NCBI GenBank assembly: GCA_051313645.2
Contig: JBNRSN020000017.1
Coordinates: 52,824,001 to 52,888,000 of the forward strand
DNA length: 64,000 nucleotides
Origin: Centroscyllium fabricii
Taxonomy: Eukaryota
Reading direction: 5' to 3'
Shown: piece after piece, positions 19,090-63,201 of the stretch
Numbering within the stretch: position 1 is the stretch's first letter
Layout of the letters: each line of letters starts with the position of its first letter
Notes under the pieces: model-generated
The model's input: the letters and a program-made list of their open reading frames with translations, nothing else
Databases searched by the model: none
What the model was told of the DNA's origin: nothing
Position numbers and translations under genes: made by a program

Positions 19090-19734
19090 CAGGTTGAGCA
19101 CCGTTAATCCGGCACCCTTGAGACCAGGCTGGTGCCGGACCACTGAAAATTCCGAACCACTAAAGGTTCGGGGGGAGCGCGCGGTAGAACACTCCCTGGG
19201 GCCCGGAGCACGTGGATAGAACACTCCCCTTATAATAATAATAATTCAACTTTATTGTCATTATACAATGTACAAGTACATGAACAACGAAATGTGATCT
19301 TGCAAGCTCCCAAGAGTCCAGCAAAGCCGCTGCATCTGTGCGTGCCACCATTCCATCTTTCCATCATTCCAACAATCTTCAGCCAACCGCCCCTCCCCGG
19401 GGCTCCTTTCATGACCTTCTGCACCTGGTATTCCCTGGTGGTCACCCCTCCAAGTACTAACCAGGCCTGGCTCTGCTTAGCTTCCAAGCCTTGTCAGTGG
19501 CCCTGTCCCTAGTCCCAGGAACCGGGTTACTGGGAGCCCGGGGATAGAACACTTACAAGAACTGAAAAACCAGCAACCCAAACGCCCAACGCCTTCGGCG
19601 CTCGCCCACCCTTCGTGGGAAACGGCGGCGCTGCCGAGCGGCTGCTCCACAAACTGAAGGTCGCCGGTTTCGATTTGTGCTGAACCACTGAAGTTGCCGG
19701 ACCATCGGGTGCCAGATTACCGGTGCTCAACCTG
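19090..19734. mobile_element. Tigger/pogo-like MITE (second subfamily) with ~300-bp insert
   Basis: TA|CAGGTTGAGCACCGTTAATC...GATTACCGGTGCTCAACCTG|TA; insert ~19230-19530 is absent from the sibling copy at 21061. Confidence 0.88.
19421..19487 (-). pseudogene. 5S rRNA-derived fragment (or head of a 5S-derived SINE3)
   Basis: Minus strand GGAAGCTAAGCAGAGCCAGGCCTGGTTAGTACTTGGAGGGGTGACCACCAGGGAATACCAGGTGC matches the 3' half of vertebrate 5S rRNA. Confidence 0.85.
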
Positions 19735-52997: not shown

Positions 52998-54970
52998 AGA
53001 CCTGAAGATTGGGAGCAGTTCAGGATACAGCAAAGGAGGACAAAGAGATTAATCAGGAGGGGGAAAATAGATTACGAAAGTAAGCTTGCGGCAAACATAA
53101 AAAACGACTGCAAAAGCTTTTATAGGTATATCAGGAGGAAAAGATTGGTAAAATCCCAAGTCGGTCCCTTGCGGTCTGATTCAGGGGAATATATAATGGG
53201 GAATAAGGAAATGGCAGACCAATTAAATTCATATTTTGGTTCTGTCTGCACAAAGGAGGACACAAATAACCTCCCTGGGATATCGGGAAACATGGGGACT
53301 AATGCAAGGGAGGAGCTGACAGAAATCAGTATTTCTAAGGATATGGTGTTGGGGAAGTTGAAGGGATTGAAGGCCGACAAATCCCCAGGGCCTGATAATC
53401 TACATCCTAGGCTACTTAAGGAGGTGGCCCTGGAGATAGTAGATGCCTTAATGATCATTTTCAGGAACTCGATAGACTCGGGAACAGTACCCACGGATTG
53501 GAGGGTAGCAAATGTTACCCCACTGTTTAAAAAGGGGGGTAGAGAATCAGCAGGGAATTATAGACCAGTAAGCCTTACATCAGTAGTAGGCAAAATGCTA
53601 GAGTCCATTATTAAGGATGTAATAGCGGAGCACTTGACAAATAGGGATGGGATCGGACAGAGTCAACATGGATTTACAAAAGGTAAATCGTGCTTGACTA
53701 ATCTATTGGAATTCTTTGAGGAAGTAACTGGTAAAATGGATGGGGGAGAGCCAGTAGATGTGGTGTACCTTGACTTCCAGAAAGCCTTCGATAAGGTCCC
53801 ACATAAAAGATTAGCATGCAAAATCAAGGCTCATGGGATTGGGGGCAAAGTACTGACGTGGATAGAGAACTGGCTGGCTGATAGAAAACAGAGAGTTGGA
53901 ATAAACGGCTCGTTTTCTGAGTGGCAGGTGGTGACTAGTGGGGTGCCGCAGGGATCTGTCCTGGGACCCCAGCTGTTCACAATATATATTAATGATCTGG
54001 ACCAGGGAATTGGATGCAACATCTCCAAATTTGCAGACGACACTAAACTAGGAGGGGGGGTGGGCTCTGATGTCAGGAAGCTCCAGTGCGATTTGGACAA
54101 GTTGGGGGAATGGGCGGATACATGGCAAATGCACTATAATGTGGATAAATGGGAGGTTATCCACTTTGGGGGCAAAAACAGGAGGGCAGATTATTATTTA
54201 AATGGCAATAGATTGGGAGATGGGGAAGTGCAGAGAGACCTGGGTGTTCTTGTGCACCAGTCACTGAGGGCGAGCATGCAGGTGCAACAGGTGGTTAAGA
54301 AGGCAAATAGTATGTTGGCCTTCATATCAAGAGGGTTCGAGTATAGGAATAAAGATACCTTACTACAGCAGTACAAGGCACTGGTGAGACCACACCTTGA
54401 GTATTGTGTACAGTTTTGGTCACCTCATCTGAGGAAGGATGTTCTTGCCATGGAAGGAGTGCAGCGGCGATTCACCAGGCTGATACCTGGAATGGCAGGA
54501 ATGACCTACAAGGAGAGATTGTGTAGTTTGGGCTTGTACTCGCTGGAGTTTAGAAGATTGAGAGGAGATCTCATAGAAACATATAAAATTCTGACAGGCC
54601 TGGACAGGTTAAATTCAGAAATAATGTTTCCAATGGTGGGGGAGTCCAGAACCAGGGGCCACAGTCTAAGGATAAGGGGTAAACCATTTAGGACAAATAT
54701 GAGGAAGAATTTCTTCACCCAGAGAGTGGTGAGCCTGTGGAATTCCTTGCCATAGAGGGCAGTGGAGGCCAGTTCATTAAATATATTTAAGAGGGAATTG
54801 GATACATTTCTTCAGGCTAAAGGGATTAAGGGTTACGGAGAGAAGGCGGGGACAGGGTACTTAACTTGAAAGATCAGCCAAAGATCAGCCATGATCTCAT
54901 TAAATGGCGGAGCGGGCTTGAAGGGCCGAATGGCCTACTCCTGCTCCTATCTTCTATGTTTCTATGTTTC
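52998..54970 (+). mobile_element. 5'-truncated CR1 LINE, same subfamily as 1-2157
   Basis: ORF 52992-54755 has a full RT motif set; premature stop near the C-terminus; (TTTCTATG)n tail. Confidence 0.95.
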
Positions 54971-55678
54971 TAAAACTTCATGGCGGCCATTCCCAATGGT
55001 AAGAATCTGCCGCTCACTCCGGCCTCACTCCTTCAGCGCTGCCCAGGACCGGGCTCCGACTGCTAACTCTCCCTCGCCAACCATTCTCGAATTCGGTTCT
55101 CTCGTGTTGTTAGTGCTGTGTTGGGCCTGCAGCCTGGGCCTCGATTTATGGTTGTAGGTGGGGTGGAGGGGAGAGTCCCATCCTGTCTGCCTGGTGCGCC
55201 GAGCCGAGGGATCTTTGCACGGCGGGTTCTGGGCCGCGGGTTGTTTTTGTCCCCACTAACCGGGTGATGTGAACTCTGGCTCCCTGTGCGTTTATTGTAA
55301 CTCATTACAGGGACTCCACGGGTTTGCTTTTTGAATTGGTGCAGTAGCTGCCGTTTACCATAATGTATGGACTCAGGCTGCAGCTACACTGCAGGTGATC
55401 AAAACTTCCGGCGGCCATTTCCAATGGTGTGCGCATGCGTGCGGCCATTTTGAATGGTGTGCGCATGCGCACTGGCCGGCTTCATTCTTCCAGTTTTTTC
55501 GCTATCCCAGCGCGGGCCTAATCCCGCCCGTGCCGGTATAACGGTGTTCAACCTGTAATATAATATTAATCCAAGATTGAGTCATTTTGGAAAGGCAAAG
55601 ATATAGCAATGTGTTCATTTAGATTTGGACAATGGATCAGCTGCATGGTGACTATTGAAGAACCAGACAAATCAGTAC

Positions 55679-56737: not shown

Positions 56738-56850
56738 ATGTAAGAAGTCACACAACACCAGGTTATAGTCCAACAGTTTTATTTGAAATCACAAGCTTTC
56801 AGAGCACTGCTCCTTCGTCAGGTGAAGTGAAGAGATTCATAAAGGCACAT
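56738..56850 (-). mobile_element. PLE family A pLTR fragment with hammerhead motif at 56789-56825
   Basis: UCAC-CUGACGA-A-GGAGC-AGU-GCUCU-GAAA-GC-UU-GUGA. Confidence 0.8.
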
Positions 56851-57104
56851 TTTTGCCCTAATAAACACAAATTGTTTTAATTCTCCGTATGTGTTCCTTA
56901 TGCTTCCTGCACATTACCTACCGCCGATCTAGATCCTATGCCACTTTCATTTTACTTGATTTCTCAGTATCCTGAGTTGCTTCCTCAACTCCTGGCTCCA
57001 TTCTCACTGACTTTATCATTCTCAGCCCAGTTACACCCCTTTTTATCTGATCGTGGTGACTATTGTCTTTATTCCTCCAGACCAATCTTGTTGCCCATCT
57101 TGTA

Positions 57105-57825
57105 TGATAGCAAAATACTGCAGATGCTGGAAATCCGAAATAACAACAGAAAATGCTGGAAAACCTCAGCAGGCCAGGCAGCATCGGTGAAGAGATATAG
57201 AGTCGATGTTTCGGGTTAGGACCCTTTGTCAAGAGTAAAGCCAGGAAATGAAACAGGTAGGAAGGCCGGGGGAGCTGGGAGGGAACAAAAGGGAAGAGAG
57301 AAAAAAAAAGGCCAAATAAAAGATCCCACTCTGATCTCTCATGTCCTTGGCCTATTACAGTGTTCCTCGGAAGCTCAGCGTAAACTCGAGGAACAACACC
57401 ACATCTTCCGATTAGGCACTTCACAGTCCTTCGGACTCAATATCGAATTCAACAATTTCAGATCATAACTTTGCCCCCTATTATATTTTTACCTATTTTT
57501 ATCCACACCTTTCATTTGGCCTTTTCTCTCTCGTGGCAGCCGCCTCCCATTCTGCCAGTGCTTTTCACACCTAATCTATAGCTGTCTCCTGTCCACAGCC
57601 CCGTCAGCATATCGTCTCATTTTGAATACCTCTTCATCTCTTTTCACTTTGGCTCTCTCTTCTCTTGTTTTTTCTTCCCTTTTGTTCCCTCCCAGCTCCC
57701 ACGGCCTTCCTACCGGTTTCATTTCCTGGCTTTAGTCTTGACAAAGGGTCCTAACCCGAAACGTCAACTCTATATTTCTCTCCACGGATGTTGCCTGGCC
57801 TGCTGAGATTTTCCAGCATTTTCTG
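57105..57825 (+). mobile_element. PLE (family C): inverted pLTR, GIY-YIG C-terminus and direct pLTR; hammerhead variants at 57201-57236 (-) and 57734-57769 (+)
   Basis: ORF 57226-57468 ends RKLEEQHHIFRLGTSQSFGLNIEFNNFRS*; 17-bp TSD TTGTTGCCCATCTTGTA (57088-57104, 57826-57842). Confidence 0.88.
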
Positions 57826-58009
57826 TTGTTGCCCATCTTGTAGTCTTTTCTCCTACCCTATGTGCTTTTCCACTCGGACATGCCTTGTATGTTCTTTCAA
57901 TTTCTCTAAATAACTCTCCATTTAATTGTTTGGTCAGTCCCAGTGAGTAACAATCTGGCGTATTAAAAAAACTTCTTTAATCTTTCTGTGTACACCAGCC
58001 ATTAAAGTA

Positions 58010-59361: not shown

Positions 59362-59579
59362 TGATGTGGAGTTGCCAGTGTTGGACTGGGGTGGACAATT
59401 GTAAGAAGTCACACAATACCAGGTTAAAGTCCAACAGTTTTATTTGAAATCACAAGCTTTCGGGGCGTAGCTCCTTCATCAGGTTTATACACCTGATGAA
59501 GGAGCTACGCTCCGAAAGCTTGTAATTTCAAATAAAACTGTTGGACGATAACCTGGTGTTGTGTGACTTCTTACAATTG
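59362..59579. mobile_element. Fold-back pair of PLE family A pLTR ends with hammerheads at ~59451-59485 (-) and ~59490-59524 (+)
   Basis: Inverted repeat centred near 59487; 12-bp direct repeat TCCTCCCAGTGA (59350-59361, 59580-59591). Confidence 0.85.
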
Positions 59580-59739
59580 TCCTCCCAGTGACACTGCTAA
59601 GACCAGAAACTGAGCATGTAGAGAATTGCAAGTTGGACTTGTATCTCATCACTTCCTCACGCAAGATTGGTGCTCTGACCTGTCATGTCACCACCATGCA
59701 GACCAATTATTTTCTTACAGTAAGCGGCAGCTAACAGAA

Positions 59740-60243
59740 TAGAAACATAGAAGATAGGAGCAGGAGTAGGCCATTCGGCCCCTCGAGCCTGCTCCGCCAT
59801 TCAATGAGATCATGGCTGATCATCCAAACCAAGTACCCTGTCCCTGCCTTCTCTCCATATCCCTTGATCCCTCTAGCCTTAAGAAATACATCGAACCCCT
59901 TCTTGAATATATTCAATGAACTAGCCTCCACCGCCCTCTGTGGCAGAGAATTCCACAGGTTCACCACTCTCTGGGTGAAGAAATTCCTCCTCATCTCTGT
60001 CCTAAATGAGTTACCCCTTATCCTTAGACTATGACCCCTGGTTCTGGACTCTCCGATCATCGGGAACATTTTTCCTGCATCAAGTTTGTCCAGTCCTGTT
60101 AGAAATTTATACGTTTCGATGAGATCCCCTCTCAATCTTCTAAACTCCAGAGAGTACAAACCCAGTCTACCCAGTCACTCCTCATACGTCATTCCTGCCA
60201 TCCCAGGTATCAGCCTGGTGAATCTTCTCTGCACTCCCTCCAT
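59740..60243 (-). mobile_element. CR1 3' fragment, near-identical to the end of 1-2157
   Basis: ORF 59731-60159 matches the C-terminus of ORF 353-2071. Confidence 0.92.
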
Positions 60244-60397
60244 GTCAGGTGTTGGCAATTGATTTTGCAATGATTCAGGCAGAGCGATTTTCCCTCATCC
60301 CGTTCAAACCTTCATACAGAGGGGTTGTCTCTCTCTATCTGCTTAACTCTTGCTGATTCTTAATTTACATCTAAAATCAACAGTAGACTTTTTATCA

Positions 60398-60734
60398 GAA
60401 AACGCTGGAAAAACTCAGCAGGCCAGGCAGCATCGGTGGAGAGAGGAACAGAGTTAACGTTTCAGGTCGATGACCTTTCCTCAGAACTGAAGAAACCAGG
60501 AGGAGGGGAATAGATTTTAAAGCTAGTAGGGGCTGGGGAAAGGGGGAGGGGCTTACCCCAGCCCCCACCAGCTTTCAAATCTATCCCCTCTCCTGGTTTC
60601 TCCAGTTCTGAAGAAAGGTCATCGACCTGAAACGTTAACTCTGTTCCTCTCTCCACCGATGCTGCCTGGCCTGCTGAGTTTCTCCAGCGTTTTCTGTTAG
60701 TTTGGAGTTCCAGCATCCGCAGTATTTTGCTATC
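60398..60734. mobile_element. Fold-back pair of PLE family B pLTRs with hammerheads at 60452-60488 (-) and 60604-60640 (+)
   Basis: Inverted repeat centred near 60548; flanking direct repeat GTAGACTTTT(T)ATCA (60383-60397, 60735-60748). Confidence 0.85.
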
Positions 60735-61047: not shown

Positions 61048-61464
61048 CAAGTTGAGCACCGTTAATCCGTTACCCGAAAAACTGGCAGCTTCAGACGTCT
61101 GGCAAAGATTTCCCCGACTGCCCTGCACATGAGCAACATGGCCACCGCGATTGGCTGCGCATGCCCGGGCCTCCCTGAACGATTGATGCTTCGGTGAATG
61201 ATCTGCGCATGCGCCGCCGAACAGCGAACGCATGCGCAGACCATTCAAAACTTCGACAGCCATTTTGAATTATCTGCGCACGCGCCGCCGAACGGCGAGC
61301 GCACGCGCCGCCGAACGGCGAGCGCATGCGCAGATCATTCAAAATTTTGCGGTGGCCATTTTGAATGATCTGCGCATGCGCCACCAAAGCTTCAATCATT
61401 CGGCGTTTTCAACAATTCGGTGGGTGCTGGTCCCGACCCTGCCGGATTAACGGTGTTCAACCTG
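61048..61464. mobile_element. Tigger/pogo-like MITE inserted in CR1
   Basis: CAAGTTGAGCACCGTTAATCCG...CGGATTAACGGTGTTCAACCTG|TA. Confidence 0.88.
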
Positions 61465-62475
61465 TATTGAATCTGCTTCCACCCCCCTTTCATACAGTGC
61501 ATTCCAGATCACAACAACTCGCTGCGTAAAAAAATGTTTCCTCTTGTAGCCTCTGGTTCTTTTGCCAATCACGTTAAATCTGTGTCCTCTGGTTACTGAC
61601 CCTTCTGCCATTAGAGCAGGTTATCTTTATTTACTCCATCAAAACCATTCATGATTTTGAACACCTCTATCAAGTCTCCTCTTAATCTTCTCTTCTCTAA
61701 GGAGAGTGACCCCAGCTTCTATTGTCTCTCCACATAACTGAAGTCCCTCATCCCTGGTACCATTCAAGTAAATCTCCTCTGCACCCTCTCCAAGGCCTTG
61801 ACATCCTTCCTAAAGTGTGGTGCCCAGAATTGAACACAATACCCCAGCTGAGGCCTAACCAGTGATTTTATAAAGGTTTAGCGTAACTTTCTTCCTTGTC
61901 CTCTAGTCCTCTATTAATAAACCAAGGATCCCATGTGCTGCTTTAACAGCCTTCTCATCTTGTTCTGCTACCTTCAAAGATTTCTGTGCGTACACCCCCA
62001 GGTCTTTCTGTTCCCGCAACCCCTTTAAAATTGTACCATTTAGTTCATATTGCCACTCCTAATTCTTCCTACCCAAATGTATCACTTCACCCTTCTCTGT
62101 GTTAAATTTCATCTGCCCATTTTACCAGTCTGTTAATGTGCCCCTGAGTCTGTTACTATCTTCATTTTTTACTATATTTCTGAGTTTCGTATCATCTGCA
62201 AACTTTGAAATTATGCCCTGTATACCCAAGTCCAGGTGATTAATTGATATCAAAAAGAGCAGTGGTCCCAACACCGACCCCTGGGGAACACCACTGTATA
62301 ATTCCCTCCAGTCTGAAAAACAATCGTTCACCACTATTCTCTGCTTTGTGACCCTTAGCCAATTTTGTATCCATGCTGCCACTGTCCCTTTAATCCTATG
62401 GGCTTTAACTTTGCTAACAAGTCTATTATGTGGTACTTTGTCAAACACCTTTTAAAAGTCCATATACAAGTACAT

Positions 62476-63201
62476 AGGGGGTGCATGAACAGAGAGACCT
62501 GGGGGTATATGTGCACCAATAGTTGAAGGTTTTCAGGGCAGGTTGAGAAAGCTGTTAAAAAAGCAAACGGGATCCTGGGCTTCATAAATAGAGGCATAGA
62601 GTACAAAAGCAAGGAAGTTATGATGAACCTTTATAAAACACTGGTTCGGCCTCAACTGGAGTATTGTGTCCAATTCTGGGCATCGCACTTTTAGGAAGGA
62701 TGTGAAGGCCTTAGAGAGGGTGCAGAAAAAATTTACAAGAATGATTCCAGGGATGAGGGACTTCAGTTTTGTGGATAAACTGGAGAAGCTGTGATTGTTG
62801 TTCTTAGAGCAGAGAAGGTTGAGAGGAGATTTGATAGAGGTGTTCAAACTCATGAGGGGTCTAGACAGAGTAGATAGAAACGGTTCACCATTGGCGGAAG
62901 GGCCGAAAACCAGAGGGCACAGATTTAAGGTTATTGGCAGAAGAATCGAAGGCGATATGAGGAAAAACCTTTTTACACAGCGAGTGGTCAGGATCTGGAA
63001 TGCACTGCCTGAAAGGGTGGTGAGGGCAGATTCAATCGTGGCTTTCAGAAGGGAGTTGGATAAGTACCTGAATTTTAAAAAATTGCAGGGTTACGGGGAA
63101 AGGGCGGTGTGAATGGGACTAGCTGAAGTGCTCAGAGAGCCAGCACGGGCTTGACGGGCCAAATGGCTTCCTTCTAAGCTGTTACCATTCTATGATTCTA
63201 C
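62476..63201 (+). mobile_element. CR1 3' fragment nested antisense within the older CR1
   Basis: LVRPQLEYCVQFW motif, ORF 62795-63112, ATTCTATGATTCTA tail. Confidence 0.88.

Follow-up and report, generated by a model that had tools for sequence, protein, structure and literature searches.

An inherited U3-A8 hammerhead core in endonuclease-bearing Penelope-like elements of Centroscyllium fabricii

Introduction

In the catalytically active fold of the hammerhead ribozyme, bases 3 and 8 pair with each other. Natural hammerheads in which this pair is U3-A8 were reported in 2011 (Perreault et al., 2011, PMC3088659), and the part of that paper drawn on here cites an earlier study in which any covariant of the pair was active in vitro. 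About 1,300 U3-A8 hits are described in the available sections of a study of the minimal hammerheads (min-HHRs) of Penelope-like elements (PLEs), in the Cercyon elements of Schistosoma mansoni (Cervera and De la Pena, 2014, PMC4209133). The supplementary alignment of that study, in the portion available, holds 11 vertebrate rows, all of them C3-G8 and none from a cartilaginous fish, and also a U3-G8 motif in Saccoglossus. The U3-A8 variant itself is already published, in Penelope elements too.

Cutting by the hammerheads of PLEs is poor in vitro and was dispensable for insertion in the only reconstituted system, and entire clades exist without the motif, which bears on whether cutting is needed in vivo (PMC4209133, PMC11167929, PMC8557442, each in its accessible parts). 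For the Poseidon element of Anolis carolinensis, the accessible text reports that single mutants at position 3 or 8 abolish cleavage and that the double mutant partly restores it. The same text reports that insertion in vitro was unimpaired by ribozyme mutations and that no reads ended at the cut (PMC11167929). Naiad elements thrive without a hammerhead motif, according to the sections of PMC8557442 used here.

Here we describe a PLE insertion of Centroscyllium fabricii, the two arms of which possess hammerhead motifs with a U3-A8 core. The window, meaning the whole stretch of 64,000 nucleotides that was analyzed, comprises positions 52,824,001 to 52,888,000 of contig JBNRSN020000017.1 (GCA_051313645.2).

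Anatomy of the insertion

Positions 57105-57825 are a single insertion flanked by 17-bp target-site duplications (Table 1). The layout seen at the locus, with 5' truncation, an inverted pLTR copy and a one-sided tail, is that of the endonuclease-bearing (EN+) PLEs. In the available part of PMC8557442, these likewise possess an RT followed by a C-terminal GIY-YIG, a CX2-5CxxC linker, 5' truncation, an adjacent inverted copy, a one-sided tail of 30-40 bp and a hammerhead in the pLTR. Two inverted pairs join the arms, 57191-57305/57665-57779 (92%) and 57142-57202/57770-57830 (90%).

Table 1. Features of the insertion and of related copies (L numbers are our labels for individual copies)
Feature	Position	Strand	Basis or remark
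Left target-site duplication, 17 bp	57088-57104	.	Identical to 57826-57842
Inverted 5' arm, which repeats the end of the pLTR and exceeds the right arm by about 37-42 bases (one-sided tail)	57105-57305	-	Inverted-pair search, alignment
Left minimal hammerhead motif, U3-A8 core	57201-57236	-	Motif search, fold inspection
Predicted left-arm cut	Between 57205 and 57204	-	Standard hammerhead numbering
Last ORF codons (C-terminal end behind the GIY-YIG domain), stop 57466-57468; 5' truncation point	57324-57468	+	Translation
Pyrimidine-rich 3' untranslated region / pLTR body	57469-57733	+	Similarity to other copies
Right minimal hammerhead motif	57734-57769	+	Motif search, fold inspection
Right-arm stem I	57734-57737 with 57766-57769	+	
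Right-arm core (U3 57738, A8 57743); extra A 57745	57738-57744	+	
Right-arm stem II; GAA 57758-57760; palindrome 57761-57764; C17 57765	57746-57757	+	
Predicted right-arm cut	57765/57766	+	Standard hammerhead numbering
Sequence behind the ribozyme, ATG at 57788-57790	57770-57825	+	Frame check on copies
Right target-site duplication, 17 bp	57826-57842	.	Initial 5 bases shared with the element
Element of about 780-800 bp behind the hammerhead cut	L007:1538-2318; L017, L021, L029, L081, L105, L107 (and L008)		
Duplicated U3-A8 copy with altered stem II	L147, L148, L152, L155, L158, L165-L168, L172, L174		

The window carries only the last codons of the ORF, and RT and the C-terminal GIY-YIG were found in pieces of longer sister copies (RVT_1, E 1.4e-4; GIY-YIG, E 2.7e-4; both under the Pfam cut-offs). 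The 50-residue ORF piece of the window alone has no Pfam match. In the longer copy L046, the end of the ORF is 83% identical to this piece over 41 residues, and the part upstream of it matches Pfam GIY-YIG. Among 517 longer homologues, the best 120 listed have 788-1358 residues, and many are annotated as RT and GIY-YIG. The CX2-5CxxC linker precedes the endonuclease, as CX4CxxC, in translations of L033, L040 and L046. Judged from sequence, the element is an EN+ PLE of the Neptune/Nematis type, the clade being assigned from the linker motif alone, which is common to both. The attribution to a PLE family made in a preliminary description of this DNA is thus borne out by the anatomy of the element and by the RT and GIY-YIG of longer copies. 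A non-LTR retrozyme was excluded: retrozymes are tandemly repeated non-coding sequences of 150-400 bases that bear canonical hammerheads, whereas the present unit retains part of an ORF and forms one fold-back insertion.

The region between stop codon and right hammerhead has 90-93% identity with the best 39 other copies scored of 6,485 candidates, and the divergence of 19 close copies from their own majority is 2.6% outside CpG sites and 11.8% within them. In full-length tandems, the ATG behind the right motif may serve to start the ORF; in most of the 26 copies inspected, an ATG 21-25 bases past the predicted cut begins a frame that continues through the tail. No intact ORF and no full-length tandem with two direct pLTRs was found among 30 ORF-selected and 8 extended loci, a search that covered a small share of the candidates (40 of 4,203 scored). 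The window copy itself is likely inactive, because each arm has a damaged helix and a transcript would pair arm with arm. The predicted fold of a transcript through the locus pairs the motif with its own antisense arm.

The arms of the insertion, 57142-57236 and 57734-57830, differ at three downstream sites that are variable in the family, and in L018, L076, L139, L144 and L184 the inverted arms of single insertions differ in subfamily alleles (loop II, positions 7-8, an upstream indel). These differences hint that one insertion may be copied from two different pLTRs or RNAs. The arm-against-arm comparison is only suggestive, as insertions spoiled 3 of 16 pairs and the window's own pair was missed. 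Of 149 distinct motifs of lineage A (the lineage of the window insertion), 7 are followed, 7-9 bases past the predicted cut, by a non-coding element of about 780-800 bp with G-rich and C-rich ends and an apparent 2-3-bp duplication, which occurs in both orientations and in several host subfamilies. It is likely a DNA transposon with a preference for the site behind the cut.

Other repeats were also seen in the window. Long inverted pairs with 76-95% complementarity lie at 54446-54965 / 59739-60247 and at 61466-63036, which we take to be CR1-like LINE pieces, and a 44-base piece at 19423-19466 on the minus strand resembles the 3' portion of 5S rRNA but scores under the Rfam threshold.

The hammerhead motif of the two arms

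Both arms possess the core U3-U4-G5-A6-C7-A8-A9. One additional A comes next, then stem II (4 bp, closed by a loop of 4 bases), GAA, the helix-III palindrome and C17. The 25-base string from core to GAAAC lies at 57738-57762 (+) and 57208-57232 (-), confirming the UUGACAA-type core that had been noticed in both arms. U4, G5, A6, N7, A9, G12, A13, A14 and a Watson-Crick 3-8 pair are all present in each. In a hand-picked alignment of 16 rows, 95% of the 144 cells of stems I and II are paired, and three pairs have changes on both sides. The extra base after A9 and G10.1-C11.1 are present, and the palindromic 15.1-16.1 junction is intact in the right arm and in most copies and broken in the left arm. 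In the sections of PMC4209133 available, the min-HHR is likewise of type I with a short stem I, an extra base between 9 and 10.1, G10.1-C11.1, a palindromic 15-16 junction without helix III, a position in the pLTR, a U3-A8 core and opposite-strand pairs 100-700 bp apart.

The left arm has two private changes, G2.3->C, which breaks a stem I pair, and G16.2->A, which breaks the helix-III palindrome. The right arm has one, G1.1->A, which breaks the first stem I pair and occurs in 7 of 20 copies. The private mutations of the preliminary description are therefore present in each arm, but they are decay rather than unique features, because two of them are CpG-type changes that are seen repeatedly in the family. 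The consensus obtained by merging the arms equals undamaged natural copies such as L044. The sequences of the arms agree, as had been pointed out, but they lie within one insertion and are not independent witnesses; their agreement alone says little, and the genome counts carry the claim.

No hammerhead family was detected by Rfam at E<=5 within the window, and four canonical C3-G8 copies, detected by a plain motif search, were likewise missed. In the minimum-energy fold of an intact natural copy, the U3-C7 core pairs with the cleavage-site strand instead of forming a hammerhead, the program ignoring tertiary contacts. The predicted lowest-energy dimer also differs from the double-hammerhead fold.

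U3-A8 as an inherited trait of lineage A

Exact patterns were matched against the genome of 7.2 billion bases, with the reversed pattern as control. One U3-A8 pattern of lineage A has 6,835 exact matches versus 0 for the reversed control, so that these matches are not due to chance. The stem-II class AGGG..CCCGAAAC has 14,053 exact matches, of which 11,707 (6,835 + 4,872) are U3-A8, 1,234 C3-G8, 830 U3-G8 and 282 C3-A8, with no control match for any of these counts. They are lower bounds because decay in any fixed letter drops a copy.

Lists of 100 matches, here and below, are the first places on the first contigs and not random draws. When positions 3, 7 and 8 were left free in the context of the subfamily, the first 100 listed of 1,774 matches comprised 98 U3-A8, 1 C3-A8, 1 U3-G8 and no C3-G8. 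Likewise, in copies selected for overall similarity, every one of the 20 motifs has U3-A8. The preliminary description had asked whether U3 and A8 are both fixed in the family consensus or private to this locus within a CUGANGA family; they are near-fixed, and the latter case fails. With the whole core free there were 10,883 matches (control, 8), the first 100 listed of which were by hand count 89 U3-A8, 4 U3-G8, 4 C3-G8, 1 C3-A8 and 2 U3-U8. Among these 100, G5 and A9 are invariant, and neither they nor A13 and A14 have any subfamily-level change. G12 is altered in 21, in 20 of them by a CpG-type G>A. Subfamilies vary at N7, at N17, at position 2.1 and in loop II.

In an ORF tree of 38 rows with CpG columns masked, three C3-G8 elements fall outside the U3 copies (support 85). 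On a shorter alignment, the support for the lineage A U3 clade is 65/0, so that its monophyly is weak. A first tree of 51 rows, from UTR and ORF end with the core left out, had support too weak to order the subfamilies. U3-A8 is a trait inherited from the source elements of the family.

The 282 C3-A8 matches were rejected as a real family, many being junction artefacts inside the core or CpG-type changes. About 9 of 20 C3-A8 loci inspected are without family sequence upstream, and L099, L100, L109 and L111-L114 begin, or turn into the inverted arm, within the 5' half of the core and so give false C3-A8 matches. Three C3-A8 copies inspected, L096, L102 and L104, look like a small sub-lineage. 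A U3-A8 copy with altered stem II (Table 1) is repeated in multi-kilobase duplications, the flanks of which are 92-96% identical (contigs C800, C823 and C776).

A probable second origin in lineage B and the control lineage C

Lineage B, the other common lineage in the window, has a 5-bp stem II and 14,370 exact genome matches. The first 100 listed of these comprise 75 C3-G8, 14 U3-A8, 4 U3-G8 and 7 C3-A8 cores (Fisher p 6e-9, the copies not being independent events), and 6 of the 7 C3-A8 copies are CpG-type. The U3-A8 copies have lineage B letters on both sides and at N7. A flanking allele occurs in 13 of 15 of them versus none of 17 C3-G8 copies, and 10 are separate insertions with no shared flank behind the element. 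The possibility that they are mere passengers of another transposon holds for just 4 of the 15. The stubs L188, L192, L195 and L196 share both flanks and ride inside another repeat, which resembles the window repeats 55401-55557 and 61246-61466.

A branch with 100/100 support parts the lineage B U3-A8 copies from lineage A (34 rows), and a single clade of all U3 copies was rejected (p-AU 0.0004; p 0.0008 in an earlier test without the nested U3-G8 and C3-A8 rows, which the p-AU 0.0004 test includes). Monophyly of the four lineage B U3-A8 rows is neither shown nor rejected (p 0.21). Lineage B majorities for U3-A8 and C3-G8, with 5 copies left out, differ at 9 of 263 columns, so that, given a change at position 3, the chance that another falls on position 8 is about 8/262. 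U3-G8 cores lie above the decay level (4 versus about 1 expected, p 0.016), whereas the single non-CpG C3-A8 core does not, which fits a path through the wobble, from few copies.

Lineage C, a third Penelope-type lineage with a different junction palindrome, served as a control. The first 100 listed of its 65,443 exact genome matches are 96 C3-G8, 3 C3-A8, 1 U3-G8 and 0 U3-A8, the level of plain decay. In the window, copies of lineage C lie at 56739-56823 and 59389-59586, the latter a spacerless 99-bp fold-back. Lineage B motifs with the canonical C3-G8 lie at 60393-60699, 28062 and 44766 and include one fold-back pair with arms 95% complementary.

Based on these comparisons, C3-G8 ancestors in the C. 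fabricii genome likely gave rise to U3-A8 at least twice, with a U3-G8 wobble as the most likely intermediate. Two origins amount to no more than two events. The covariation is identical to that of the U3-A8 hammerheads in the available part of PMC3088659. The examples there are scattered, whereas a retroelement family with ancestors and intermediates is found here. Relative to the portion of PMC4209133 at hand, the present case differs in its at least 11,707 plus about 2,000 U3-A8 copies, in the shorter stem II of 4 or 5 bp and in two origins in one genome. String searches for CUGANGA had been expected to overlook the variant, and in this genome over 13,000 motifs escape them.

The literature searched contained no U3-A8 in a vertebrate element, no two origins in one genome and no measured rates for U3-A8 or U3-G8, and the portions available of PMC7229834 and of the retrozyme preprint 10.64898/2026.07.22.740005 had no passage on U3-A8; the PLE hammerhead variants of Lunse et al. 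(2017) may hold vertebrate cases. What is new is the vertebrate-type genome, the scale and the two origins with intermediates in one genome.

Imperfect cores

Imperfect cores have also spread. In the AGTT/CYGAA sister sub-lineage of lineage A (1,228 matches), the first 100 listed are 68 U3-A8, 31 U3-G8 and 1 U3-U8. CpG decay from a U3-C7-G8 source was rejected as the cause of these mixed cores because the CG form accounts for 1 of the 100 listed versus 35 for the doubly changed form, and also because the sister subfamily has diverged by about 12% at its CpG sites. A lineage A U3-G8 copy is nested among U3-A8 copies (support 87), and so the wobble in lineage A may be a reversion and not an intermediate. 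Within the U3-A8 group, a U4C sub-lineage accounts for 7 of 96 copies listed, and among C3-G8 cores an A6U sub-lineage accounts for 3 of 100 matches listed (contig C1, 18863175, 33383077 and 61316349). A6U should damage the core, yet it spread.

Both changes of the swap are C>T/G>A transitions, towards A+T. The G8>A change of lineage A can fall on a CpG, and in lineage B both changes share one TCT context on opposite strands.

Discussion

The locus is best read as a 5'-truncated fold-back insertion of an EN+ PLE, the pLTR of which carries a minimal hammerhead with an inherited U3-A8 core that was likely kept by selection for self-cleavage. We give this reading a probability of roughly 70%. Selection on the 3-8 pair is likely, as the preliminary description suggested from the double change, and the second origin adds support. 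It appears loose, however: the pair is not strictly required for spread, given that U3-G8, U4C and A6U variants spread too.

The alternative with most in its favor is a founder effect without selection, in which mutation bias (CpG/TpC deamination) produced the transitions and the motif traveled as a passenger, its activity irrelevant. The direction of both changes and the spread of imperfect cores are in line with this, as are the dispensability of cleavage in vitro for the Anolis element (PMC11167929, accessible text) and the idea, raised in the consulted sections of PMC8557442, that HHRs merely parasitize PLEs. It fits poorly, however, with an identical pair-restoring double change in two lineages, in lineage B with few other differences. 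The constancy of G5, A9, A13 and A14 at the subfamily level while neighboring free positions vary, and the lack of U3-A8 among the 100 listed matches of lineage C, also argue against it, so that a pure founder effect seems unlikely.

Selection may instead have acted on the fold as a structure, such as a protein binding site, a dimer scaffold or a control of the start codon, and not on cutting. This we consider less probable still. According to the available parts of the respective papers, the Anolis motif cleaves only with the protein of its element and uncut RNA is the main substrate (PMC11167929), and minimal motifs cleave poorly in vitro (PMC4209133); the short distance from predicted site to ATG would also suit a structural role. 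Compensation at 3-8, however, points to the catalytically active fold, and the catalytic G12 changes by CpG-type decay alone. The Anolis hammerhead likewise lies at the pLTR-ORF junction and needs its 3-8 pair for cleavage; it has a C3-G8 core, and its ORF starts inside stem II, whereas here the first ATG follows the predicted cut (PMC11167929, same parts). Finally, post-insertion decay of C3-G8 copies, locus-private or copy by copy, can practically be dismissed: although G8>A behind C7 is CpG-type and such singles occur (6 of 100 listed in lineage B), the subfamily copies listed are nearly all double with no C3-G8, the non-CpG divergence of the 19 close copies predicts fewer than 0.1 double changes per 100 copies, and the exact matches and likeness-chosen copies of lineage A refute it.

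If the motif is kept for self-cleavage, the 4-base helix-III palindrome would join two motifs within active tandem source elements, and each would cut the strand of the other, a step that we infer from the dimer model in the available part of PMC4209133 and from the anatomy. Cutting would shorten the transcript to a point slightly upstream of the likely start codon and leave a short leader before the ATG. The 3-8 pair would be needed for the active fold, and the U3-A8 swap would restore it, because the pair is required for the fold in the Anolis mutants (PMC11167929, accessible text). Weaker cores likely spread occasionally, either because a partner motif cuts or because cutting is not needed in every round, with uncut RNA also inserting. 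The public runs considered were 15, all as assembled contigs, one of them recorded as RNA (a small share), and 4, of presumed RNA status, were compared with the element and gave no accumulation of ends. Contigs of one run span the ORF end and tail but little of the UTR and core, a gap that does not show these parts to be missing.

In conclusion, it is an evenly poised possibility that this genome records the swap twice, via a U-G wobble that was tolerated, and that the ancestral, intermediate and final forms are all still present, in copy numbers from hundreds to thousands. It would then hold natural evidence that cutting is selected in vivo, with weak cores hitch-hiking in heterodimers. The genome also contains a natural allelic series of C3-G8, U3-G8, U3-A8, C3-A8, U4C and A6U cores, the copy numbers of which could be compared with measured rates. 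As to whether the hammerheads of PLEs must cut in vivo, the repeated compensatory change at the 3-8 pair is evolutionary evidence that the active fold matters.
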